The notes: generated by a model from the sequence alone, not told the origin. Counted from the stretch's first letter, positions 1,510-17,391 are shown. The stretch: 29,259 nucleotides of DNA from a virus (IMGVR_UViG_3300048557_000187:1-29259), one strand, 5' to 3'. Translations and numbers: made by a program.

Positions 1510-1589
1510 TTTTTTTTCTTTGTTTAAAGGTATCTAAGGGCATATTTTACCCACTATTTAACTTTTATTTAAAATAAATTAAAAAAAAA

Positions 1590-1653
1590 CTTGACAAGTA
1601 TTATTTATTACTTGTATATTTCTTTCAACAAACGATAACAAACCTACAGAACA
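1590..1653 (+). promoter_or_regulatory. Promoter with internal inverted repeat and conserved leader (copy 1)
   Basis: CTTG/TTGACA ... TATATTTC. ACAAGTA-N8-TACTTGT at 1594-1615. Leader AAACGATAACAAACCTACAGAA at 1630-1651. Confidence 0.65.
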
Positions 1654-1947
1654 ATGAAAATTACAAAAGACACCTTCAAACAACTTTCAACACTTAAAAA
1701 GTACAATGTTGAATTTCAGTCTACACCATACAATTACAAAGAACGTGTGTGCATATCAACTAACGGTACTGGATATGCTGATGTTTTCTACTATTTTGAG
1801 GTTTCAAACTATGGAACCGGTAAAGAATATGTGAGTTTCATAAAAAGATATTCAATGAATACTGGCAAAGGTAGTAGAAGCTTTACTGCTGGATATAACT
1901 TCGAAAAAAGAATCGTAAGAGATTTACAAAAAGCAAACTTAATTTAA
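1654..1947 (+). CDS. Hypothetical protein (island 1)
   Basis: 97-aa ORF directly behind the conserved leader. Confidence 0.75.
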   Translation: MKITKDTFKQLSTLKKYNVEFQSTPYNYKERVCISTNGTGYADVFYYFEVSNYGTGKEYVSFIKRYSMNTGKGSRSFTAGYNFEKRIVRDLQKANLI

Positions 1948-2367: not shown

Positions 2368-2767
2368 CTTAATCAAGAAGGTAGAAGAAGGTAACCTTAA
2401 GGCAAGTAATGCCTATGTAACACTTCGTGCGTTAAAAAGCGAAATTGAATACGCTATAAAGCAAATAGAAAGTCAAATCATTGACGAACTGACTTACTTA
2501 GATAAGAAAGAAGCCCTAGTTGTAAATGGGTACAAAATTACCCATGTTGCAGGAAGAACTTCTTACGACTATAAAGAAAGTTCAATGTGGAAAGAAGCAG
2601 ACACAGAAAAGAAGCGAATCGAAAGATTAATAAAGGTAGCAACCAAAGACGGTGTGTCAATAGTGGACCAACATACGGGCGAAGTAATCGAACCCGTACA
2701 AATCAAACAAGGTAACGGATATATAAAAATGGAACAATCAAATGAAGATTTACAAAAAATTATTTAA
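2345..2767 (+). CDS. Hypothetical protein, recombination-module partner of ERF
   Basis: 140-aa helical ORF with 'D..TGEVI' tail, directly upstream of ERF. Confidence 0.7.
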   Translation: MPIEEPYNLIKKVEEGNLKASNAYVTLRALKSEIEYAIKQIESQIIDELTYLDKKEALVVNGYKITHVAGRTSYDYKESSMWKEADTEKKRIERLIKVATKDGVSIVDQHTGEVIEPVQIKQGNGYIKMEQSNEDLQKII

Positions 2768-3278
2768 GGTAACAAGCACAATGGATAAGATGAAGAAGGA
2801 TTCAACGAACCCTTTCTTCAAGTCAAAGTATTTTGATATTAACCAACTGATAGAGGCAGTACGACCTGCACTTATTGCAGAAGATTTACTACTACTTCAG
2901 CCCATAGAAAATGGTGCAGTTGGTACACGAATCATAGACATAGAAACTGGTGATTCAGTAGAAGCATTTATTTCTTTGCCAGATATACAAGACCCACAAA
3001 AGCTTGGTGCTTGTGTAACGTATTATCGAAGGTTTACACTAGGTAGTTTACTAGGCATAGAAGCAGAAGATGATGACGGGAATCTTGCCGCAGGCAATAA
3101 GCCAAAAGTATCTAAAGCCTTCAAGAAAGAAGAAAAAAAACCTTGGCTTAATGAAGGTATGCCCGAATGGGATAAGGCAGAAGAGTTTGTAAAGGGTGGT
3201 GGTAGTCCTAGCCTTTTACGGCAGAAGTACGCAGTATCTAAACCCAACATGGATTATTTTTACTCAATAGCTAAATAA
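2742..3278 (+). CDS. erf: ERF-family single-strand annealing protein
   Basis: 'NPFFKSKY' and 'DPQKLGACVTYYRRFTL...EDDDGN' ERF motifs. Confidence 0.9.
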   Translation: MKIYKKLFKVTSTMDKMKKDSTNPFFKSKYFDINQLIEAVRPALIAEDLLLLQPIENGAVGTRIIDIETGDSVEAFISLPDIQDPQKLGACVTYYRRFTLGSLLGIEAEDDDGNLAAGNKPKVSKAFKKEEKKPWLNEGMPEWDKAEEFVKGGGSPSLLRQKYAVSKPNMDYFYSIAK

Positions 3279-3285
3279 TATAATT

Positions 3286-3480
3286 ATGACACCAGAAAAA
3301 GAACTAGAAGAAATTCGTAAATGGCTTTCTTCACAAGACCTAAACGATTTAAGCTTTGCTATACAAATACCCGTGCCAAGACTTAGGGCATTTAGAAACA
3401 TGGACACAATCGACCCTGCTTACACGACAATCAGAAAACTACAAAACTATAAAAATGGAACTGTTAAACTTAATGCTTGA
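3286..3480 (+). CDS. Small Cro/XRE-like helix-turn-helix protein
   Basis: 'DLSFAIQIPVPRLRAFRN...P.YTTIRKL' HTH spacing. Paralogue of 10406..10594. Confidence 0.6.
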   Translation: MTPEKELEEIRKWLSSQDLNDLSFAIQIPVPRLRAFRNMDTIDPAYTTIRKLQNYKNGTVKLNA

Positions 3481-4846: not shown

Positions 4847-5506
4847 ATGGGCAAAGGATGGATAAAACTGCATAGACAGTTTTTAGAATGGGAATGGTAC
4901 GATGAACCGAACTGTACAAGGGTATTCCTACATTGCTTACTAAAGGCTAATCATAAAGATAAGCGTTATAGGGGTGATGTCATTAAAAGGGGTACTTTTG
5001 TTACAAGTTTGGAAATTCTCTCACATGAATTAAGTATTACTACCCAACAATTAAGAACTGTTTTTAAGAAGCTAGAAAGTACTGGCGAAATCAACAGACA
5101 AAGCAACAGACGTGGCACTGTTGTAAATGTATGCAACTACGATACTTACCAAGACGTAGATTCCGATAGCAACACACGGAGCAACAAACAACTAACAAAC
5201 AAGCAACAGACAAGCAACAAACAAGTAACAACTACTAAGAATGATAAGAATGAAAAGAATGTAAAGAATGAAAAGAATATAATACCCACACTATCGGAAG
5301 TAGAAGAATATTTTACTGAAACTGATAAGATTGGTAGCACCCATATAACACTAGAAGCTGAAAACTTTATCAACCATTACGAATCATTAGATTGGAAAAA
5401 GAACGGTAGAAAAATTAAAAGATGGAAACTTCAAGCTAGCACATGGGCAAACAATTACGTAAAATTCAGCAAACAAAAAGATAACAAATTTGAAAACCCA
5501 TTCTAA
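4847..5506 (+). CDS. Phage replication initiator (lambda O/replisome-organiser-like)
   Basis: 'GWIKLHR' N-terminus, winged-HTH region, iteron-encoded N/K/Q linker, C-terminal 'F..HY...W...W' domain. Confidence 0.85.
   Translation: MGKGWIKLHRQFLEWEWYDEPNCTRVFLHCLLKANHKDKRYRGDVIKRGTFVTSLEILSHELSITTQQLRTVFKKLESTGEINRQSNRRGTVVNVCNYDTYQDVDSDSNTRSNKQLTNKQQTSNKQVTTTKNDKNEKNVKNEKNIIPTLSEVEEYFTETDKIGSTHITLEAENFINHYESLDWKKNGRKIKRWKLQASTWANNYVKFSKQKDNKFENPF
5181..5280 (+). repeat. Iteron-like tandem repeats, probable replication origin
   Basis: Five 11-mers (GCAACAAACAA consensus, 5181-5235) followed by five 9-mers (WAAGAATGA consensus, 5236-5280). Confidence 0.8.
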
Positions 5507-6074: not shown

Positions 6075-7190
6075 ATGAAAGTAATAGAACGCAAAATAAA
6101 TGAACTTATTCCTGCTGAATACAATCCTAGGCAGTTGAGTAAAGAACAAGCAGAACAACTTAAGGCAAGCTTGCAAAGATTTGGAGCAGTTGACCCTGCT
6201 ATTGTAAACATACACCCTGAACGTAAAAATATTATAGTGGGTGGACATCAAAGGTTAAAGACTGCGCAAAGTATAGGGTGGGAAACATTCCCGTGCGTAG
6301 AAGTAGAACTAGATAGGGATAAAGAACGTGAACTTAACATTCGGCTAAATAAAAACACGGGTGCTTGGGATTACGATGCCCTAGCTAATTACTTCGAAGT
6401 AGAGGAACTTACCGATTGGGGATTCAGCGATGAGGAACTATTTGGGAATATAGAGGCAGAGGAAGTCGAGGCAGAGGAGGATAACTACGAAGAACCCGAA
6501 GATATAAAAGTCGATGTAGTGTTGGGCGATTTAATCGAGATAGGCGAACATCGTTTGCTTTGTGGGGATAGTACAGATTCCGACCAAGTGGCGAAGCTGA
6601 TGAATGGGGAGAAGGTTGATATGGTATTTACCGACCCACCTTATGGGATGAATGCAGTATCAAAAAGTGGTGTTTTATCAAAAAATTATAAAACAGATAT
6701 ATTAGGCGATGATAACACAGATTGTGCTAAAGATTCTTTTAATCTGATACATTCATTATATCCTGATGCGATACATATATGGTGGGGTGCTAATTATTAT
6801 TCATCTTGCTTACCCGATTCTGAATGTTGGATTGTATGGGATAAAAACAATGGTGGAAGCGACCAGACTGATTGTGAATTAGCTTGGTGTAATGCAAGAA
6901 GCGTTGTAAGACAATTTACAAAGGCCTCTGAAAAAACTAATCGTGTTCATCCAACTCAAAAACCAGTTGATTTAATTGATTGGTCAATAAAAAAATTTTG
7001 TAACAATGCTCAACTAATATGTGATTATTTTTTGGGAAGTGGTGCAACAATAGTAGCTTCACACCAACTTAAACGCAAATGCTACGGAATGGAGTTAGAC
7101 CCTAAATACTGCCAAGTCATTATTGACCGAATGAAAAAGCTAGATGATACGTTGGAGATAAAAATAAACGGTGAACCCTATGGCGTATAA
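6075..7190 (+). CDS. ParB-like N-terminal domain fused to an N6A/N4C DNA methyltransferase
   Basis: 'YNPR...GGHQRL' ParB-like region. DPPY, HPTQKP and D.FLGSG motifs in beta-class order. Confidence 0.92.
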
Positions 7191-7542
7191 GACTGAAGAT
7201 TTATATAAAGATGCCCTTGGTGTAATTAAAGAATACAACCTTTTTTTTGTGGCTGATGTTCTTGCTTATTTAGGTATTAGTAAAGATACTTTTTATAGGC
7301 ATTTTCCTTTGGAATCAGACGAATCAAACGCTATAAAAGAAGAATTAGATAAAAATAAAGCACGTACTAAAATAAGCATACGTTCTAAATTACATAAAAG
7401 TACATCACCAACTGGGTTACTAGCTTTATACAAGCTTATATGTACCGATGATGAGAGAAAATCCCTTAGTATGCAACACCATGACCATACAACCGATGGT
7501 GATAAAATAAATGAAGTAACGGTTAGAATCGTTGAAACATAG
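7180..7542 (+). CDS. terS: Terminase small subunit (putative)
   Basis: HTH '[12 protein letters not shown]' and '[10 protein letters not shown]' tail. Directly upstream of terL. ATG 7180 preferred to GTG 7171. Confidence 0.75.
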
Positions 7543-8719
7543 TTTTGATGCAAATAAACTTTATCCACTAACGTATAACAGTACTAAACCCTACATAGTA
7601 CATCAAGGTGGTACATCTTCTGGTAAGACTTACGCCATTCTTCAGGTGTTAATAATGAAGGCGGCAACAGAAAATGATTTAGTCATTACTGTTGTTGGTC
7701 AAGACATACCGAATTTAAGGGTAGGTGCGTATCGGGATGCACAAACAATTATCTTTAACGACCCATTCTTTACCCAAGAACTCAAGGACCACAATAAAAG
7801 CAATAGGGTGTTTACTTTTGTCAACGGCTCTAAGATTGAATTTAATTCATACAATGACGAAATAGATGCAAGAAGTGGTAAAAGAACACATTCATTTTTC
7901 AACGAAGCAAACGGCATAGACTATGGTATTTTCGAACAGATTAGTATGCGTACTACTTACCAGACCATCATTGACTTTAATCCTTCGGCAAGCTTCTGGG
8001 CGCACGAAAAACTTTATGGTCGTGATGACGTGGATTGGTTTGTTTCTACTTACCGTGATAATGCGTTCATACAATCTAGTATTAAGAAGAAAATAGAAAG
8101 CTACGAACCTACTACAGAAAACATAAAGGCAGGTACGGCTAACCAATACAGATGGCAAGTCTATGGACTGGGTGAAGTAGGTAGGCTAGAAGGCTTGGTG
8201 TTTCCTAACTTTGAAACTACAAACGACTTTCCAGATAATTTTAAGTGGCGATGCTTCGGGCTTGACTGGGGTTACACAAACGACCCAACTGCCCTTGTCG
8301 AAATACGCTATGCAGGTGGTGCTTTATACTGGAAGCAACACATTTACCGAAGGCAACTTACCAACCAACATATTAGCCGTTTAATCAAAGAGCTGGGCAT
8401 AACAGATGAAATAGTAGCAGATAGTGCTGAACCTAAAAGCATTGCTGAATTAAGAAACCATGGTGTATGGGTCAAGCCCGCTAAGAAGGGTAAAGATTCT
8501 GTCATGTTTGGAATCCAGTTGCTACAAGACTACCCGATTAAAATACACGCACAAAGCAAAGACCTAATAGAAGAATTTAGTAGCTACACTTGGGCAAAAG
8601 ATAGAAGTGGCTCACCTACCAACAAACCCATAGATGATTTTAACCACGGCATAGATGCAGGTAGATACACAATCATGGACCGAATGAAGAAAAAGACCCT
8701 AGATATTTCTTTGATTTAA
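7532..8719 (+). CDS. terL: Terminase large subunit (PBSX/SPP1-like)
   Basis: Walker A GGTSSGKT, Walker B FFNEA, DFNP, nuclease motifs DWGY, DSAEP, NHGIDA. TTG start. Confidence 0.95.
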   Translation: MKHSFDANKLYPLTYNSTKPYIVHQGGTSSGKTYAILQVLIMKAATENDLVITVVGQDIPNLRVGAYRDAQTIIFNDPFFTQELKDHNKSNRVFTFVNGSKIEFNSYNDEIDARSGKRTHSFFNEANGIDYGIFEQISMRTTYQTIIDFNPSASFWAHEKLYGRDDVDWFVSTYRDNAFIQSSIKKKIESYEPTTENIKAGTANQYRWQVYGLGEVGRLEGLVFPNFETTNDFPDNFKWRCFGLDWGYTNDPTALVEIRYAGGALYWKQHIYRRQLTNQHISRLIKELGITDEIVADSAEPKSIAELRNHGVWVKPAKKGKDSVMFGIQLLQDYPIKIHAQSKDLIEEFSSYTWAKDRSGSPTNKPIDDFNHGIDAGRYTIMDRMKKKTLDISLI

Positions 8720-8802
8720 AACAAGGAACACCCGTTCCTAAAAAAAATTTTACTGTAAAAACACGCTCTACATACCCATAAAGGGCTATTCCTAACCTTA
8801 TT

Positions 8803-8880
8803 AAAAAATAATTTAAAAATTTATTTGTACGGTATTGTCAAGATGTTTATATTTGAAAAAACGATAACAAAACTACAGAA
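8803..8880 (+). promoter_or_regulatory. Promoter plus conserved leader (copy 2)
   Basis: AAAAAATAATTTAAAAATTTATTTG..GGTATTGT; TTTG-N20-TATATTTG (8824-8855); AAACGATAACAAAACTACAGAA. Confidence 0.8.
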
Positions 8881-9371
8881 TGATGGAAAATTTAAATATA
8901 GCAAACACAGAAAACAGTTACGGTGATTGGAGTAAATTACATGATGCAGAACGTACATTGGAAGAACATTATGTGAATATGGGTGTGCGTTTAGCCTTTA
9001 CCGAAGATGGCTACCAAATACCATTACACGAAAGTGGATGGCGTTGCAGTGAGTTTTATAGAAGGGCAGAATGGTGGGGTTGTACAAAAAAACGAACTGC
9101 AAACCAACGCTCAGAAAATATTTTAGCAATAAGAGTTGTGCGTAAAAGCGAAAGTGGCAAAACACTATATGTGCAGTTTAAGTACAATCATCATTACGAA
9201 AAAGATAATTGGAGCGAAAATGAATTTGTAACTGACATGGAAGCATTACGGCTACACATTTGGCGATGCGAAACCCGTAAGCTAGAAGAATATGCCAAGA
9301 TAAAAGTTAGAAAAAAATTAACAGATAGCAGAACTGATGCAATAAAGTGGGACAATACATACTATATGTAA
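8880..9371 (+). CDS. Hypothetical protein (island 2)
   Basis: 163-aa Trp-rich ORF behind the conserved leader. Confidence 0.75.
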   Translation: MMENLNIANTENSYGDWSKLHDAERTLEEHYVNMGVRLAFTEDGYQIPLHESGWRCSEFYRRAEWWGCTKKRTANQRSENILAIRVVRKSESGKTLYVQFKYNHHYEKDNWSENEFVTDMEALRLHIWRCETRKLEEYAKIKVRKKLTDSRTDAIKWDNTYYM

Positions 9372-9458
9372 AAAATAATTTAAAAATTTATTTGGATGGT
9401 ATTGTAGAAACCCTTATCATTCTTATGAATTAAAAAACGATAACAAAACTACAGAAAA
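9370..9458 (+). promoter_or_regulatory. Promoter plus conserved leader (copy 3)
   Basis: Near-identical to 8803-8880 at both ends. TTTG-N20-TATCATTC. Confidence 0.75.
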
Positions 9459-9713
9459 ATGAAAACTATTTATAAAATCGAATATTTAAACACAGAAGAT
9501 AATACTAGAGCCTACGACGAATATTTCTCTTCGTTAAAAAAAGCTAAAGACAGTTTAGAATTTTTTGCCTCGGCAAGAGGTATAGATGTTTCCTTCAACA
9601 ATATAAGCAAGTCTATTATTCGCGTAGCAGACGAAAAAGGTGAAAGTTTAAACACTTATTATAAAGACATCGTTGCTTACCCTGGATGGATACAAAGACT
9701 TGAGTTAAACTAA
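9459..9713 (+). CDS. Hypothetical protein (island 2)
   Basis: 84-aa ORF behind the conserved leader. Confidence 0.75.
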   Translation: MKTIYKIEYLNTEDNTRAYDEYFSSLKKAKDSLEFFASARGIDVSFNNISKSIIRVADEKGESLNTYYKDIVAYPGWIQRLELN

Positions 9714-9723
9714 ACAATAACAA

Positions 9724-9741
9724 GGGCTACTTCGGTAGCCC
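9724..9741 (+). other. cUUCGg tetraloop hairpin within leader copy 4
   Basis: GGGCTAC-TTCG-GTAGCCC, no U-tract. Confidence 0.8.
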
Positions 9742-9758
9742 ACTAAAACTACAGAACA

Positions 9759-10001
9759 ATGACAAAGCAAGAATTAATTAACGGACAAGAATTCGAATTT
9801 GATAACGAATCATTTTGTGAAAGACATCAAGTAGATGATGTTCATGCAGGTTGGATTATGTTTCAACCAAGAACCCAACATTTTTTAATTTGGTTTAATG
9901 GCACAATAATCTTTTCTTCTAAATCGCTTTCGGTTACAAAGAAAAGACTTGACAAGCTTTTTACTAAATGGAGCTTGGAATTTATCGAATCAGAAATATA
10001 A
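9759..10001 (+). CDS. Hypothetical protein (island 2)
   Basis: 80-aa ORF after AAAACTACAGAACA. Confidence 0.75.
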   Translation: MTKQELINGQEFEFDNESFCERHQVDDVHAGWIMFQPRTQHFLIWFNGTIIFSSKSLSVTKKRLDKLFTKWSLEFIESEI

Positions 10002-10021
10002 ATAACAAAACACAGATAACA

Positions 10022-10228
10022 ATGACTGGAAAACTTAGAACTATAGAATGCAAAGACTGGAAAGATGAAACCATTACTTACTATGAAATGGATTTAAAAT
10101 TCCAACACGCCTACCATAACTTTACCTACTTCAGTTTAGAAGGGGAAAGCATGATTGGATTCACGGACCGTATTAGATACGAAGTACGTAAGATGTATGG
10201 TTCAGAACTCACATGGGTAGAAGAATGA
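10022..10228 (+). CDS. Hypothetical protein (island 2)
   Basis: Start refined to ATG 10022, after a degenerate leader ATAACAAAACACAGATAACA. Confidence 0.7.
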   Translation: MTGKLRTIECKDWKDETITYYEMDLKFQHAYHNFTYFSLEGESMIGFTDRIRYEVRKMYGSELTWVEE

Positions 10229-10404
10229 AATGCGAATGTTCAGACGAAGAACTAGAGATACAAGATTTAGAAATCGAAGATAATAGCTTTAGCCATGCCT
10301 TCGGTACTGAATACGACTATGAAGTCGTTTGCCCTAACTGTCAAGCGCCTATGGGCGAATTTGCAAGCCCAGAACAAGTAATAGAAGCTAAACAAGGATA
10401 TTAA
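10225..10404 (+). CDS. Small acidic zinc-ribbon-like protein
   Basis: CEC...CPNC, very acidic. ATGA overlap with the previous gene. Confidence 0.7.
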   Translation: MKCECSDEELEIQDLEIEDNSFSHAFGTEYDYEVVCPNCQAPMGEFASPEQVIEAKQGY

Positions 10405-10405
10405 T

Positions 10406-10594
10406 ATGAAAGCACAAAAAGAAGAACAAGAAATATGGGAATGGCTACAAAATAAGCACGTTCCAGACTTAGCAAGAAAAACTGGACTAGGCACAACGCC
10501 CATTTATTATTTTAAAAATGGTAAGGCTAAAAATGCTAGCTTCCAGTTAATACGTTCACTTCAACTAATAAAGGAAAAAGAATGTACACCTTAG
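10406..10594 (+). CDS. Small Cro/XRE-like helix-turn-helix protein
   Basis: 'DLARKTGLGTTPIYYFKNG' HTH signature. Confidence 0.75.
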   Translation: MKAQKEEQEIWEWLQNKHVPDLARKTGLGTTPIYYFKNGKAKNASFQLIRSLQLIKEKECTP

Positions 10595-10902
10595 CACTAG
10601 ATGCCTTTAAACGATTTGAACAATGCGTTACTGGTGAACTAGAAGATAACCACTTAGGACTGATTGCAGAATTTTGTGATAAGATGAACATAGGCTATGA
10701 TACTTTGTTTATGAAAAGTAGAAAGCCTAAGTTTGTTAATTATCGTTCACTATTTTTTAACTGGGTAAACTTAAGTCATATAGAGCTTGCACGGTTGTTT
10801 AATATGCACCATAGCAGTATTATGCACTTAAGGCAAGACCATGCTAACAGATTGAAGTACGATAATCAGTATAAAGATTTACACAAAAGATTGACGATTT
10901 AG
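10582..10902 (+). CDS. DnaA domain IV-like (TrpR-like HTH) DNA-binding protein
   Basis: 'KSRK..FV..R...LS..ELARLFNMHHSSIMH' resembles DnaA 'SR...R...IG..F.RDHTTV.H'. Confidence 0.7.
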   Translation: MYTLALDAFKRFEQCVTGELEDNHLGLIAEFCDKMNIGYDTLFMKSRKPKFVNYRSLFFNWVNLSHIELARLFNMHHSSIMHLRQDHANRLKYDNQYKDLHKRLTI

Positions 10903-10926
10903 TAGAATCATACATTCTGTAGATAT

Positions 10927-10959
10927 GCCACTTGGTGTGAAAGTCAAGTGGTTTTTTTT
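10927..10959 (+). terminator. Rho-independent terminator closing island 2
   Basis: GCCACTTGG...TCAAGTGGT stem followed by a T-run. Confidence 0.8.
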
Positions 10960-11016
10960 GGTTATTTCAATAGTTGTAAATATTTGTTAATTTAACTGCA
11001 ACTTAAAAAGTAAATT

Positions 11017-12411
11017 ATGGCTCTATCTGACCTTCTACCTTTTGCTAGGACAAAAGCACCCAACACCAACTTGGTGAATGAATTAAACAGACAGTTATTT
11101 AGATTTCATAGGGGTATGCCCATTAGTTTGGATGATACCCAAAACGCCTATGTAGAAGATGGGTATGAACTAAATCCCGATGTCTATAGCGTTGTTAATG
11201 GAATCACGAAAGCGGCATCAGCCGTGCCACCCGTAGTTCAAATTGTAAAGAACGAAGCAAAAGCACTTAAGTATAAAAAGCTTGCTTCTACAAATCGTGA
11301 TAAGGCAAAGCAATCAACGATTGACAACCTTCTTGAACTTAAGAACGAAGCATTTGATGAAGTGAATGATGAAAAAGACCCACTTTATAAGTTAATGACT
11401 CGACCAAATCCATTACAAGGTTATCCCGAATGGTATGAAAACATGAAGGGCTTTCAGCTTATAACGGGCAACGCATATACACATTATGTGCAGTTAGGTG
11501 ATGGTACAGTTGGTGAGATGTGGGTAATGCCTTCACAGTTTACAAAGATAGTAGCAGACCCTACTTATGAAAGTCTTATTAAAGGGTACATCATTGATAT
11601 GTACGGGCAAGACGGGCATCAGCTACCTGCTGAAACTGTTGTACATTGGAAGTACTGGAATCCTGACTATGATTCAGTTGGTTCACATCTTTATGGCATG
11701 AGTCCACTAAAGGCGGCAAGGCGTTCTATACGATTGGGTAACGATGGTGATATGGCTTTAAGTAAAGCCTTAAAAAATGGTGGTGCTAGTGGGGTGGTTT
11801 ATCCTACCGACCCAGACTTAGAGCAGTTGACACCAATGCAACGTAGTCAGCTAGAAAACTACTTACGTGATATGCAAGGACCAAGTAATTATAAATCTTG
11901 GCTAGTGTCTAGTGTTAAATTAGGCTTTGAAAAGTTTGGCATACCACCAGTTGATTTAGAAATCATTGAAGCAGGTAAGATGACCCAAAGGGATATATGT
12001 AATGTTTTTAATTTCCCTAGTGAATTATTGAATGACCCAGACAACAAGACTAACGCAAACAAAGAGCAATCACGAAAGCAGTTGTACATGGATAATGTAA
12101 TCCCAGAACTTACACGGGATTATTCAGAATTGAATCGTTCTTTAGTTCCGTTATTTAATGAAGCAACTGGTAAGAAATACCATTTAGATTTTGATGTACA
12201 AGCTATTGATGCGTTGAATAAAGACAATAGCGAAAAGGTTGACTGGCTAAGTAAAGCTTGGTGGCTAACTGCCGATGAAAAGCGTATCGAAATGGGCTAT
12301 CAACCAGTTGGGGATAATAACAGATACATACCAATGAATCTTATACCCGATGCGACTACTGAACTAACCGATGATGATATTAAAATGTTAAAGAATGAAT
12401 ACGGGTCTTAA
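11017..12411 (+). CDS. Portal protein (HK97 family)
   Basis: 'L..PNP', 'GNAY', 'GMSPL.AA', 'IC.VF.FP', 'T.DE.R'. Confidence 0.95.
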   Translation: MALSDLLPFARTKAPNTNLVNELNRQLFRFHRGMPISLDDTQNAYVEDGYELNPDVYSVVNGITKAASAVPPVVQIVKNEAKALKYKKLASTNRDKAKQSTIDNLLELKNEAFDEVNDEKDPLYKLMTRPNPLQGYPEWYENMKGFQLITGNAYTHYVQLGDGTVGEMWVMPSQFTKIVADPTYESLIKGYIIDMYGQDGHQLPAETVVHWKYWNPDYDSVGSHLYGMSPLKAARRSIRLGNDGDMALSKALKNGGASGVVYPTDPDLEQLTPMQRSQLENYLRDMQGPSNYKSWLVSSVKLGFEKFGIPPVDLEIIEAGKMTQRDICNVFNFPSELLNDPDNKTNANKEQSRKQLYMDNVIPELTRDYSELNRSLVPLFNEATGKKYHLDFDVQAIDALNKDNSEKVDWLSKAWWLTADEKRIEMGYQPVGDNNRYIPMNLIPDATTELTDDDIKMLKNEYGS

Positions 12412-12766
12412 ATATTTTTCACAATCAGATTTTGATAAATGCAATCCACCTTGCAAGCTAGAAGAAATGGATGAAAAATTCATGAAGAAGCTAGATATTG
12501 CAAGGCAGATAGCTAAGATACCATTTATACCGACATCGGGCTTTAGAAGGGAAATTTGGGAGCAAGAGCAAGGCAGGGATGGAACAAGTAGCCACACAAA
12601 AGGCTTGGCAATAGATTTAAAGGCTCAAGATAGTCTTACTAGATATAAAATAATAAATTCCTTACTTTCTGTTGGTTTGAACCGTATCGGTATTGGTAAG
12701 AATTTTATTCATGTTGATATGGATAAAGATAAAGCATCAAACGTAATTTGGCACTATTATGACTGA
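12395..12766 (+). CDS. Endolysin, peptidase M15A family
   Basis: 'SGFR', 'SSH..GLAID', 'FIHVD' zinc-peptidase motifs. Confidence 0.9.
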   Translation: MNTGLKYFSQSDFDKCNPPCKLEEMDEKFMKKLDIARQIAKIPFIPTSGFRREIWEQEQGRDGTSSHTKGLAIDLKAQDSLTRYKIINSLLSVGLNRIGIGKNFIHVDMDKDKASNVIWHYYD

Positions 12767-13385: not shown

Positions 13386-14201
13386 ATGCCAATACCTAAA
13401 ACAAATATCGAAGCCCATAAAAAGTACATGACATGGAAGGCTTACGATAACAAGATAAAATCTTTTGAAAAATACGCAGAAAGAATTTTTTATCGGGCGC
13501 TTCGTAACCAGTTGAAACAATATTTAGATGAAGTAAAAAAACGTGATAAGATAGATATTGATTTAGAAGGCATTATTACCGTAGAACCTATGCTTGATGC
13601 TTACAAAAAAGTATATACACGGGTGATGAAAGTGTTTGGTCAAGAAACGCTTGCTAATCTAAAGGAATCAATGAAGAAAGAAGTAAGTGTTGATTGGGAT
13701 GTTTTAATCGCACAATGGCTTGCAGGGAATGAAGTTTTAAACCCTTCAGATACTACCAGTAAGATTGTAATGGTAACAGAATCAACTAAAAGGGGTGTGC
13801 GTAAAGCAGTTGAAGTAGCATTAAAAGAAGGAACAAGCGTACAAAGATTTGCAAAGGAATTAAGCTATATGCCAGACTTCAGCTATAGAAGGGGGGTATT
13901 GATAGCACGTACAGAATTAGTGTCAGCTTCAAACGCAGGTTCTGTTTTAGGCGCACAAGCTTCAGGTGTTCCCACAAGAAAGGTATGGTTATCAACTCAA
14001 GATGATAGGGTACGTGATACGCATTTAGCAGTTGATGGTCAAACGGTTGTAAACTTAGAATCAACTTTTGAAGTACCTAATATTGAAGGGTTTACAGATA
14101 AAATGCAATATCCTGGCGATTCTTCACTAGGTGCTTTACCAAGTAATACAATCAACTGCCGTTGTACTGTTATCTACGAACCCTATGACGATAATATTTA
14201 G
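13386..14201 (+). CDS. Head morphogenesis protein (Mu gpF / SPP1 gp7-like)
   Basis: 'IARTE', 'W....D.RVR.TH', 'YPGD', 'INCRC'. Confidence 0.92.
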   Translation: MPIPKTNIEAHKKYMTWKAYDNKIKSFEKYAERIFYRALRNQLKQYLDEVKKRDKIDIDLEGIITVEPMLDAYKKVYTRVMKVFGQETLANLKESMKKEVSVDWDVLIAQWLAGNEVLNPSDTTSKIVMVTESTKRGVRKAVEVALKEGTSVQRFAKELSYMPDFSYRRGVLIARTELVSASNAGSVLGAQASGVPTRKVWLSTQDDRVRDTHLAVDGQTVVNLESTFEVPNIEGFTDKMQYPGDSSLGALPSNTINCRCTVIYEPYDDNI

Positions 14202-14829
14202 CTACAATAGACCAGAATTACTTAATAAAGTAATAGGGCAATGCCCAGAAAAGCCTATAGTTATAGACGATGGTAGTGATTTTGACCCTATGCCCTTCGT
14301 GGGTACGTGCGAGTTTCACAGACTAGAACACAAAGGCAAAGAACAATACTTTCTTAACTGGCAATATGCTTTTGAAATATGCAAGCAGTCTGATGATGAT
14401 TTTTTTTTATTCTTGCCAGATGACTTTTTACAAATAGACTTTGACACGATTCATAAATTGCATTCACAAATTAAAGGCAAATACGCTTATAATCTTTTGA
14501 ATGATGGCAGACCTAAAATCTGGACCTATATAGAACACAAAGAAGTGAACGTAAAAGGTGTTGATTCTATTCAAGTTAGTTATTGTGATGGTGGTTATTT
14601 TACAAATAGACAAACACTAGAAGCAATAAATTTTGAACAAGATTTTATTACATCAAGTAGATTTGGTAGGTCAAAGATTTCATCGGGTGTTGGTGAAAGT
14701 CAAAGCCGTAAATTTTGGAAGCTTGGCATTCCTATGTACATACCTAAAAAATCATTATGTTATCACGGGGAACATGAAAGCATGATGCACCCAGAACTAA
14801 GAAAAGAACAACCACTTATAAGCCAATGA
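14185..14829 (+). CDS. GT-A fold (GT2-like) glycosyltransferase
   Basis: 'IIFSYNRP..L', 'IVIDDGS', 'FLFLPDD', late 'H.G'. Start refined to ATG 14185. Confidence 0.82.
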   Translation: MTIIFSYNRPELLNKVIGQCPEKPIVIDDGSDFDPMPFVGTCEFHRLEHKGKEQYFLNWQYAFEICKQSDDDFFLFLPDDFLQIDFDTIHKLHSQIKGKYAYNLLNDGRPKIWTYIEHKEVNVKGVDSIQVSYCDGGYFTNRQTLEAINFEQDFITSSRFGRSKISSGVGESQSRKFWKLGIPMYIPKKSLCYHGEHESMMHPELRKEQPLISQ

Positions 14830-15002: not shown

Positions 15003-15674
15003 TTGGTCATTACAGCCAACTTAGCAACGATAGAAGCCCGTAAAGACAGCTTACAAGAAGTAGTTGATTCGTTACGATTTCAAGTTGATAAGGTTCGTGT
15101 TTATGGTAACGATTACCAACCAGAACTAGAAGGCGATAATGTAGAAGTCTATACTGGTCCAGATTACACAGATAATGCTAAGTTTTTTTGGCTACCCATA
15201 AGTAAGGGTATCTATCTTTCTTGCGATGACGATATTATCTACCCACCAGACTACGTAGAAACGATTGTCAAGGGCTTAAAGAAGTACCCTAATACTTGGG
15301 TAACATTTCATGGTAGAAGGCTTAAGGGTTTAAATTTACCCTACTATAGTGGGCATGACAGTTACCCTTGCTTGCGTACAGTTCCTTATGATTATGAAAT
15401 CCATGTAGCAGGTACGGGTGTTAGTGCTTTCCATACTGATACAATAAAGTTTGACCCACTTACATGGAATGAATACAAGATGGCTGATATAATGGCTAGC
15501 TTAGAATTAGCGAAAAAGGGGGTAAGGGTTATTTGTTTAGCACATAAGATATTCTGGCTTAAAATAACCGAATCTTCAAAGAATCAATCTATTTTTATAA
15601 GTGAGCGAAGAAATTCAAAAAGACAAGATGAACTAGCTAATGTGATTTATGAACTTGTTTCCAGAAACAAATAG
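15003..15674 (+). CDS. GT-A fold glycosyltransferase
   Basis: 'AT...R..SL..VV.SL..QVD', 'CDDDIIYPPDYV' DxD motif, 'GTG', 'AD'. TTG start. Confidence 0.82.
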   Translation: MVITANLATIEARKDSLQEVVDSLRFQVDKVRVYGNDYQPELEGDNVEVYTGPDYTDNAKFFWLPISKGIYLSCDDDIIYPPDYVETIVKGLKKYPNTWVTFHGRRLKGLNLPYYSGHDSYPCLRTVPYDYEIHVAGTGVSAFHTDTIKFDPLTWNEYKMADIMASLELAKKGVRVICLAHKIFWLKITESSKNQSIFISERRNSKRQDELANVIYELVSRNK

Positions 15675-15852: not shown

Positions 15853-17391
15853 ATGACTTACAACGATTATCCCAAAGCCGCAACTAACAACGCCAAACGT
15901 GCTTTAAAGTACCGTGAAGAATCTGGCAACCCTAAAGGATGTGGCACACCAGTTGGGTGGGCTAGGGCTAATCAGTTAGCAAAGGGTGAAGCGTTGAGCG
16001 AAGATACTGTTAAGCGTATGGCTTCTTTTAATAGGCACAGACAACACAAAGATGTTCCTTATGAAGATGGATGTGGTGGTTTAATGTGGGATGCTTGGGG
16101 TGGCACAGAAGGCGTAGATTGGGCAATAAGAAAATCAAAACAAATTGATGAAGAAAAGAAGCGTATAGAAATGGAATACGTGGAAAAAGGCTTGATGGAC
16201 ACTTTACGTGATAAAGCCAAAGAACATAATGATGAAGTAGGTGATGTTGATTCTAAAAGAACAACTGCTTCAACGTTAAAAAAAGTTTATGACCGTGGCA
16301 TTGGTGCTTATCGTACTAATCCACAATCTGTACGACCATCTGTATCAACTGCACAACAATGGGCTATGGCAAGAGTAAATTCTTTTCTATATGCCTTAAG
16401 AAACGGAAGATATAGAAGTGGCAAACATGACACAGACTTATTACCAGAATCACACCCCATGAGTTCAAAATCACATCACGAAGAAATGGAAACAAAAGAA
16501 CCACAAGTGTCTTACTTGAGAACAGAAGAAGAAGCTGAAGAATATGCTGAATTTTTAGGATGTCGTGGAACGCATACACATACAATGGATGGTGAAACAT
16601 TTTACATGGCTTGTAGTAGTCATGAAACAAACTTACAACTAGAAGAACAACGACAAGGTAAAAATATGAACTTACCATGGATTACTAAAGACACTAATGC
16701 TACGATTAAAGGCGTAGATGTAGAAAAAAGAATAGTCGAAGGATATTATTCTGTCTTTGACTTTAAAGATTCTGATGGGGATGTAATTCTTAAGGGTGCA
16801 TACGAAAAGACCCTGCAAGAAAATGGTCCTAATGGTAAGAACAGAATCATGCACCTTTATCAGCATGACCCATTACAAGTACTAGGCAAGCCTATGACCT
16901 TGATAGAAGATTCTAAGGGTCTTTATTTCCGTACTATGATTTCTGATACAGAATTAGGAACGGATGTCCTTAAACTTTACCGTGATGGAATACTTAAAGA
17001 GCATTCAGTTGGTATAAACTTTATCCAACGTGATTATAGCCAAGAAGATGATGCTTACATCGTTAAGGAATGTAAGATGTGGGAAGGCTCTACAGTAACA
17101 TGGGGAGCAAATGAAATGGCTATAGGTGGCATGGCTAAAGGGTCTATTAAGGACCAAGTAGAAAAATACAAAGAACTTTCTAAAGCCTTCTATTCTGGTG
17201 ATTATACTGATGAAACATTCAGACTAATAGAAGCACAACTTAAACACATAGAACAATCGTTTAAAGATTCACTTCAAACCAAGAAGCCGGTTCAAGCCAC
17301 TTTAAAGAATGAAGCCGAACTGATTGAAAATGTATTTAAACAATTCAACAATCAACTAAAAATCGAAAAGGAGTTCAAACAATGGACTTAG
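15853..17391 (+). CDS. HK97-family prohead protease with a ~270-aa multi-domain N-terminal extension
   Basis: C-terminal half has 'EGY.SVF...DSDGDVI.KGA', 'HLYQHD', 'EDSKGL', 'HSVG', 'EGS.VTWGAN'. Confidence 0.92.
   Translation: MTYNDYPKAATNNAKRALKYREESGNPKGCGTPVGWARANQLAKGEALSEDTVKRMASFNRHRQHKDVPYEDGCGGLMWDAWGGTEGVDWAIRKSKQIDEEKKRIEMEYVEKGLMDTLRDKAKEHNDEVGDVDSKRTTASTLKKVYDRGIGAYRTNPQSVRPSVSTAQQWAMARVNSFLYALRNGRYRSGKHDTDLLPESHPMSSKSHHEEMETKEPQVSYLRTEEEAEEYAEFLGCRGTHTHTMDGETFYMACSSHETNLQLEEQRQGKNMNLPWITKDTNATIKGVDVEKRIVEGYYSVFDFKDSDGDVILKGAYEKTLQENGPNGKNRIMHLYQHDPLQVLGKPMTLIEDSKGLYFRTMISDTELGTDVLKLYRDGILKEHSVGINFIQRDYSQEDDAYIVKECKMWEGSTVTWGANEMAIGGMAKGSIKDQVEKYKELSKAFYSGDYTDETFRLIEAQLKHIEQSFKDSLQTKKPVQATLKNEAELIENVFKQFNNQLKIEKEFKQWT

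Follow-up and report, generated by a model that had tools for sequence, protein, structure and literature searches.

In the window, by which we mean the entire stretch of 29,259 nucleotides of viral DNA analyzed here, the terminase gene terL and the portal gene are 2,297 nt apart and the interval between them carries seven ORFs, all on the plus strand (Table 1). The original prediction, which had described these normally adjacent genes as split by about 2.3 kb with seven small ORFs, was borne out in this respect. The repeat it had noticed in front of the first genes is also real: the 22-nt leader AAACGATAACAAAACTACAGAA occurs three times in the window (0.00 expected), as does a second repeat element, AAAACTACAGAA (0.02 expected). 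The description of the repeats as near-identical copies of about 80 nt holds for a 37-nt block (8802-8838 and 9369-9405, 95% identity) and a 22-nt block (8859-8880 and 9435-9456, 100% identity), but the middles of 20 and 29 nt, which contain the promoter spacer and the -10 box, are unrelated. Shorter versions had been claimed in front of the genes at 9759 and 10022. A short leader is indeed found at both places, but the spacer preceding 9759 is of a different type, in which a GC hairpin is combined with the short leader. The third leader copy (1630-1651) lies outside the interval and heads the recombination/replication operon. The terminator proposed for the array was located by a scan as a hairpin (10927-10952) with a T run.

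Table 1. Features of the terL-portal interval and related elements of the window (P, promoter; H, hairpin; L, leader alone)
Feature	Position	Strand	Remarks
Third promoter/leader copy with F32-family cassette	1560..1947	+	Heads the recombination/replication operon
Erf single-strand annealing recombinase	2742..3278	+	Pfam ERF, E 9.6e-19; putative role in shuffling
terL, left boundary	7532..8719	+	Pfam Terminase_3/3C, PHROG terminase
Hairpin downstream of terL	8724..8739	-	Terminator-like on the minus strand only
P-type spacer 1 (P1)	8802..8879	+	A/T tract, -35-like TTGTAC (8825-8830), 17 nt, -10-like TATATT (8848-8853), A-rich leader (8859-8879); putative promoter
Slot 1 cassette	8880..9371	+	163 aa; only 3 homologues found (99%, 71%, 71%); other genes here in relatives
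P-type spacer 2 (P2)	9369..9458	+	A/T tract, TTGGAT (9392-9397), 17 nt, TATCAT (9415-9420), leader (9435-9458)
Slot 2 cassette, family F20	9459..9713	+	84 aa; swapped from start to stop in L094
H-type spacer	9711..9758	+	Stop codon, GC hairpin with UUCG loop (9724-9741, z -5.3), short leader
Slot 3 cassette, family F10	9759..10001	+	80 aa; median dN/dS 0.24 (3 pairs); skipped in one seawater contig
L-type spacer	9999..10021	+	Short A-rich leader; most frequent start point of homology to relatives
F3	10022..10228	+	68 aa; present in 22/32 arrays
F4	10225..10404	+	59 aa, acidic (pI 4.05), CxC...CxxC; present in 20/32 arrays
F2	10406..10594	+	62 aa, Cro/434-like HTH (weak match); present in 26/32 arrays
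F1	10582..10902	+	106 aa, stand-alone DnaA domain IV-like; 32/32 arrays, final gene in each
Intrinsic terminator closing the array	10927..10960	+	Hairpin and T run
Conserved motif of TTGTTAA(T/A)TT type	10975..10995	+	Upstream of portal; candidate late promoter
Portal, right boundary	11017..12411	+	Pfam/PHROG annotation

When the corresponding arrays of related viruses were included, three recurrent spacer types could be distinguished. In P-type spacers, an A/T tract is followed by two hexamers, one led by TTG and the next of the form TAT..T, which stand 17 nt apart, and then by the leader. With a strict pattern, 40 such sites were counted in 24 of the 28 arrays having a 5' end (consensus TTG(C/A)(A/C)(T/A)-17-TAT(A/C)(T/A)T), and the remaining four arrays carry looser versions when inspected by eye. 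Scanning the region for generic sigma-70 promoters gave 13 matches vs 10.0 expected, which is not above chance, and the assignment of these elements as putative promoters is based on conservation over 24 distinct copies. H-type spacers involve a stop codon, a GC hairpin, which often has a UUCG loop and whose stems vary yet remain paired, and then the leader; we counted 36 of them in 27 of 35 arrays, separate from the P-type spacers. Since the internal H hairpins mostly lack a U run on the sense strand, they may stabilize or process transcripts or stop antisense reading. The A-rich leader was unstructured in the fold test and the fold of P2 is weak (z -2.05). Visual inspection of 30 spacers between F1 and portal showed a hairpin with a T run downstream of F1 in every one of them. 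Upstream of F2, a 21-22 nt unit around AATCTGCAC is present in one to three copies in L003, L008, L013, L024, L039, L041 and L071; this unit is common to both clades described below and is absent from the window. A shared AAAA..TTG(T/C)..A.TT motif, a candidate late promoter, precedes window positions 6075, 11017, 15853 and 28708 and is also found before the portal and holin genes of the sister clade.

The virus record is estimated to be 86% complete and has no end repeats; related contigs reach 32-35 kb. The window carries genes for recombination, replication, a methyltransferase, terS-terL, portal, lysis, head and a siphovirus-type tail, among which tube, tape measure and HK97-type head genes were identified with Pfam and PHROGs. 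Erf, NinG and SSB are all encoded, and the corresponding recombination operon is inverted in whole or in part, relative to the window, in L018-L020, L023-L028, L068, L070 and L071. This operon also contains a paralogue of F2 (3286-3480, 25% identity). Short tandem repeats (5180-5277, families D3 and D4) are located inside a DnaD-like gene and would match the expectation for a replication origin within an initiator gene. Two conserved genes between a Mu F-like gene and the protease (14131-14829 and 15003-15674) gave no library match, and by eye we take them to resemble glycosyltransferases. The prohead protease itself (15853-17391, 512 aa) has the extra N-terminal domains DUF5824 and DUF3721. 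The sequencing runs that contain the window are seawater or marine samples. The closest cultured portals are about 27% identical and belong to Flavobacterium and Cellulophaga phages; a 52% identical portal is present inside one Marinimicrobia bin, an entry which may be a co-binned virus. An SD-like 4-mer was found upstream of only 3 of the 33 window genes, and A-rich starts without an SD are the general rule there. Such SD scarcity fits a Bacteroidota-like translation system (PMC6847099).

Searches with TerL and portal retrieved 87 loci. In all 31 distinct contigs with a TerL identity of at least 70% and both flanks, the terL-portal gap measured 1,367-2,857 nt, whereas it was 91-123 nt in all 17 contigs with TerL identities of at most 66%. 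The 275 ORFs of the complete and partial intervals clustered into 60 groups, of which 54 remained after one non-array locus had been dropped, and nine near-duplicate arrays were removed before statistics. Among the 32 complete arrays we observed 23 gene orders, built from about 54 small-protein families, and the expectation that relatives carry different ORFs in the slots between conserved leaders was thus confirmed. Even in the six nearest lineages (TerL 91-98%) the 5' genes differ from those of the window and from one another. The 3' tail (F3, F4, F2 and F1) is steadier, and in each array F1 is the last gene longer than 130 nt. Fast turnover is thus limited to the 5' slots, next to a semi-conserved 3' tail with an invariant last gene. 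For the five of the seven window ORFs that could be tested, median dN/dS values were 0.14-0.24.

A close relative, L094, matches the window over 7667-9465 with 97.2% identity, then carries another gene in slot 2 and resumes at 95.4% identity from the stop codon at 9711. The replacement is exact from start codon to stop codon. The incoming gene belongs to the family heading the replication operon of the window and is 50% identical to 1654-1947. Over 35 arrays, 188 of 289 alignment ends were intergenic or no more than 9 nt from a gene end (76.6 expected) and 123 of 289 fell between -30 and +8 of an ATG (37.4 expected), but these ends are non-independent, since one junction is counted in several loci, and the computed P values are therefore overstated. 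These branch points recur in contigs from separate seawater studies, which depart from or join the window at 8873, 9371, 9713, 9754>10018 and 9763 in one set and at 8885, 9465, 9711 and 9746 in another. The joint 9754>10018 skips slot 3, with 9 bases shared at the joint. Another joint (8801>9369, run X12), considered as a deletion between P1 and P2, was left uncounted because the repeats may have produced it as an artefact of alignment. Contigs from RNA libraries of related strains span 10442-11126 and carry no information on strand or timing. Some exchanges fall within genes: in family F8, a chimera was made inside the gene and L003:11213-11437 and L032:11357-11587 share only their last 25 residues or so. 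Similarity of the leaders may partly reflect selection for translation. Taken together, the slot swaps and the breakpoints in the spacers support the recombination-shuffled array of the original prediction.

The TerL tree has 41 rows and was rooted at the midpoint; one outgroup row in it is short and has a long branch. All 23 lineages with the island fall into a single clade of this tree (support 99/97), the sister of which is an island-less contig. Four loci of the sister clade could be mapped fully (L063, L068, L070, L071). Here, the array follows a DnaD-like gene and its neighbor and precedes the lysis and terminase genes, and three shorter contigs of this clade show the end of the array. 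In the clade of the window the order is replication, terS-terL, array, portal and lysis. The same cassette families and spacer types occur in both clades. From these gene orders, the single island clade and the shared cassettes it follows that one rearrangement carried the terminase block across the array. The array is therefore not newly inserted, as the original prediction had put it, but is an accessory cluster of the lineage, which the sister clade has kept between its replication and its lysis/packaging genes. Exchange with the old array position has continued after the move: cassettes compared across the clades have nucleotide identities of 85-97%, whereas the terL genes are 58-64% identical, and an F32 cassette is 96.7% identical over 275 nt between L070 of the sister clade and L026 of the island clade, the TerL proteins of which share 59% identity. 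The 146-aa gene that follows the sister array in L063 (6583-7023) looks by eye like an M15 endolysin, and its sequence is unrelated to window 12395-12766.

From these data we consider it likely that the terL-portal interval is the lineage's cluster of small accessory genes, which are likely to be expressed early and are exchanged as whole genes at promoter, hairpin and leader repeats, probably by means of the virus' own Erf-type recombinase. Early expression is judged from promoter form and position, which make it likely. Host RNA polymerase would fire the strong -35/-10 promoters of the P-type spacers at infection, and the A-rich leaders would act as SD-less translation starts, doubling as homologies of 15-60 nt. 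Crossovers at these homologies during co-infection would yield genes that are ready to be expressed. Rad52-like proteins, Erf among them, recombine homologies that are short and diverged (PMC3945230), and the phage Erf is therefore the candidate enzyme that would carry out the crossovers at the spacers. The closing terminator would shield the portal operon from early transcripts, the cargo would act on the host by takeover or counter-defense, and F2 and F1 would be DNA-binding regulators.

What the cargo does may be read in a narrower sense, namely as a dedicated anti-defense island, in which most cassettes inhibit restriction, CRISPR, CBASS or abortive infection and in which turnover tracks host defense. 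The cargo families are small (median 81 aa), they turn over fast, are under purifying selection and stand behind strong putative promoters. Moreover, one cargo gene encodes an MT-A70 methyltransferase, which was observed between F2 and F1 in one lineage (L049:8963-9529; also L050 and L080). Phage accessory regions hold counter-defense genes according to bioRxiv 2023.04.06.535777, and an anti-defense share thus stays plausible. However, anti-defense families were matched by none of 71 proteins in Pfam or PHROGs and by none of 46 in NCBIfam, and the cargo has no acidic bias (pI below 5.5 in 23 of 54 families, above 8 in 22 of 54). As a description of most of the cassettes we find this reading possible but doubtful; it is compatible with the accessory-cluster explanation, which covers the shuffling.

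Database searches were not very informative for the cargo. Above the Pfam cut-off, the 71 scanned proteins yielded only the MT-A70 methyltransferase and DUF7258, and in PHROGs two entries of unknown function were matched, so that PHROGs and NCBIfam added no function. None of the ORFs matched virion proteins in Pfam or PHROGs. The ESM Atlas gave no usable match for slot 1 or slot 3, and Rfam gave no match. Structure prediction combined with fold searches, which the original prediction had proposed for each ORF, led to DnaA in the case of F1 but to nothing above background for F3. The F3 model (pLDDT 89.5) has a fold of three strands, a helix and a strand, for which viral structures gave no match at E ≤0.001; among solved chains the best Z was 6.4, and AcrIF5 (Z 4.3, rank 18) was within background.

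For F1, the profile search reached E 1.7e-4 to DnaA structures, and the ten top Foldseek rows obtained with its model (pLDDT 84.9) were all DnaA (best E 2e-3). Superposition on DnaA domain IV (PDB 1j1v, 3pvp, 2hcb) gave a TM of 0.61 and rmsd values of 2.3-2.4 A over 83-85 columns, and the domain IV motifs R...R and DHTTV align in F1 as KSRK...R and MHHSS. The best Pfam score was just under the cut-off (31.0 vs 31.5 bits). Unlike DnaA, F1 has neither an AAA+ nor any other domain. Profile and fold thus support the DnaA-IV-like last gene of the original prediction, and F1 is by these predictions a stand-alone DnaA domain IV. It has 21 homologues, with one weak match in a cultured phage (Pelagibacter phage HTVC100P, E 3e-3), and no F1 match was found outside the array in these loci, the sister-clade stretches included. 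Canonical DnaA boxes were unclustered in ten phage loci (1-4 per 17-29 kb). The idea that F1 is the positional equivalent of the last gene of the sister clade, taken as a Q-like late activator, was rejected, since the 146-aa gene of the sister clade is unrelated to F1. Possible roles of F1 are control of the neighboring candidate late promoter and competition with host DnaA. Among the papers covered, which came mostly from outside the subscription literature, we found none on a stand-alone DnaA domain IV of phages or on a terL-portal cassette array. We regard as improbable a live plug-in library of more than 50 host-takeover and anti-defense genes that crosses clades and is capped by a captured stand-alone DnaA domain IV blocking initiation on the host chromosome. 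In this reading the genome would be packaged by the headful mechanism, and the move to just behind terS-terL would place the array at the end that is terminally redundant and injected first.

Turnover might also result from deletion out of a larger ancestral array together with ordinary recombination at gene boundaries, the repeats being convergent expression signals. Within the island clade, just 21 of 952 cassette pairs exceed the identity of TerL by 10 points, so that much of the within-clade sharing could be inheritance plus differential loss, and the general occurrence of SD-less A-rich starts in the window (SD-like sequences before 3 of 33 genes) agrees with this proposal. However, about 54 families exceed the capacity of arrays of at most 2.9 kb, the swap in L094 is gene for gene, and the cassette identities between the clades lie far above those of terL. 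For these reasons we consider deletion unlikely as the source of the turnover.

The original prediction had also drawn an analogy to acr-aca operons, in which the HTH gene F2 would repress the repeated promoters. The array of small genes does lie among structural genes and does have a small HTH gene close to its end. The assignment of F2 as an HTH protein is weak (E 0.046 to Pfam HTH_26; E 0.011 to the 434 repressor in a profile search). The promoters of acr-aca operons carry a conserved inverted-repeat operator, whereas perfect inverted repeats were found in 6 of 24 distinct array promoters (9.0 expected) and none of them was shared between promoters. No Acr or Aca family was matched (0 of 71 proteins in Pfam/PHROGs, 0 of 46 in NCBIfam), although novel Acrs would also escape such searches. 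In addition, F2 is absent from 6 of 32 arrays and occupies the second or third position in those of L022, L026 and L027, and its paralogue lies in the recombination operon (3286-3480). With no Acr or Aca match, no shared operator palindrome and an HTH gene in only 26 of 32 arrays, the analogy found no support and we consider an acr-aca operon very improbable. A foreign element inserted in the packaging module (a satellite, a moron or a leading region with single-stranded promoters) is the least probable reading and already largely refuted. In its favor, the array separates terL from portal, which lie side by side in 17 relatives, and it possesses promoters and a terminator of its own. However, the array is not foreign DNA, given that the sister clade carries the same cassette pool. 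The same families and spacers also recur at window 1560-1947, no integrase is present among the window ORFs, and the fold of the P1 region (8720-8882) as single-strand DNA is nothing special (z -0.89).

If the accessory-cluster explanation is compared with known systems, promoter-early stem-loops (PeSLs) come closest. In PMC2839356 and PMC4122927, these are described from T4-type phages (RB49/phi1, PST/T4, nt-1/KVP40) as repeated intergenic units of an AT-rich tract, sigma-70-like -35/-10 boxes and a stem-loop with G/C runs, which flank small unknown genes in variable regions and to which gene gain, loss and replacement map. The array shares with them repeated sigma-70-like promoters with an upstream AT-rich tract, and its gene gain, loss and replacement likewise map to the repeats. 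In contrast to the PeSLs of these accounts, its promoters and hairpins mostly occupy separate spacers and form no composite unit, its 3' element is an unstructured SD-less A-rich leader instead of a Shine-Dalgarno sequence, and most of its internal hairpins have no U run on the sense strand. Rather than a T4-like myovirus, the virus is a phage with tail genes of the siphovirus type and a genome of about 32-35 kb, and one compact array has been moved between two genome positions with an Erf recombinase on board. By analogy, the array appears to work like PeSL shuffling, but it falls outside the PeSLs in composite structure, SD and virus type.

Other systems are more distant. The array resembles acr-aca operons in its small genes and its HTH gene among structural genes, but this HTH gene is neither universal nor terminal and F1 closes the array. 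Unlike the single-strand promoters Frpo/ssi, P1, which was the one spacer folded as DNA, forms no long stable single-strand hairpin (8720-8882, z -0.89). In position, the sister-clade site between the replication genes and the late operon is comparable to the nin region of lambdoid phages. Like the phage accessory regions outlined in bioRxiv 2023.04.06.535777, the array keeps a changing set of small non-core genes at one fixed location; unlike accessory regions and nin, it gave no cargo homologous to a described counter-defense gene, and it has moved past terS-terL to their other side. The invariant stand-alone DnaA domain IV is a specific candidate that may regulate the phage or inhibit replication of the host. 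The roughly 54 small families, whose slot boundaries are known and of which nearly all lack annotation, form a bounded set for screening and come from a likely under-studied host group. Repeat-guided gene shuffling, which has been described for large T4-type phages, is extended here to a small marine lineage with a different spacer grammar, in which the exchange is visible at base resolution in living populations.
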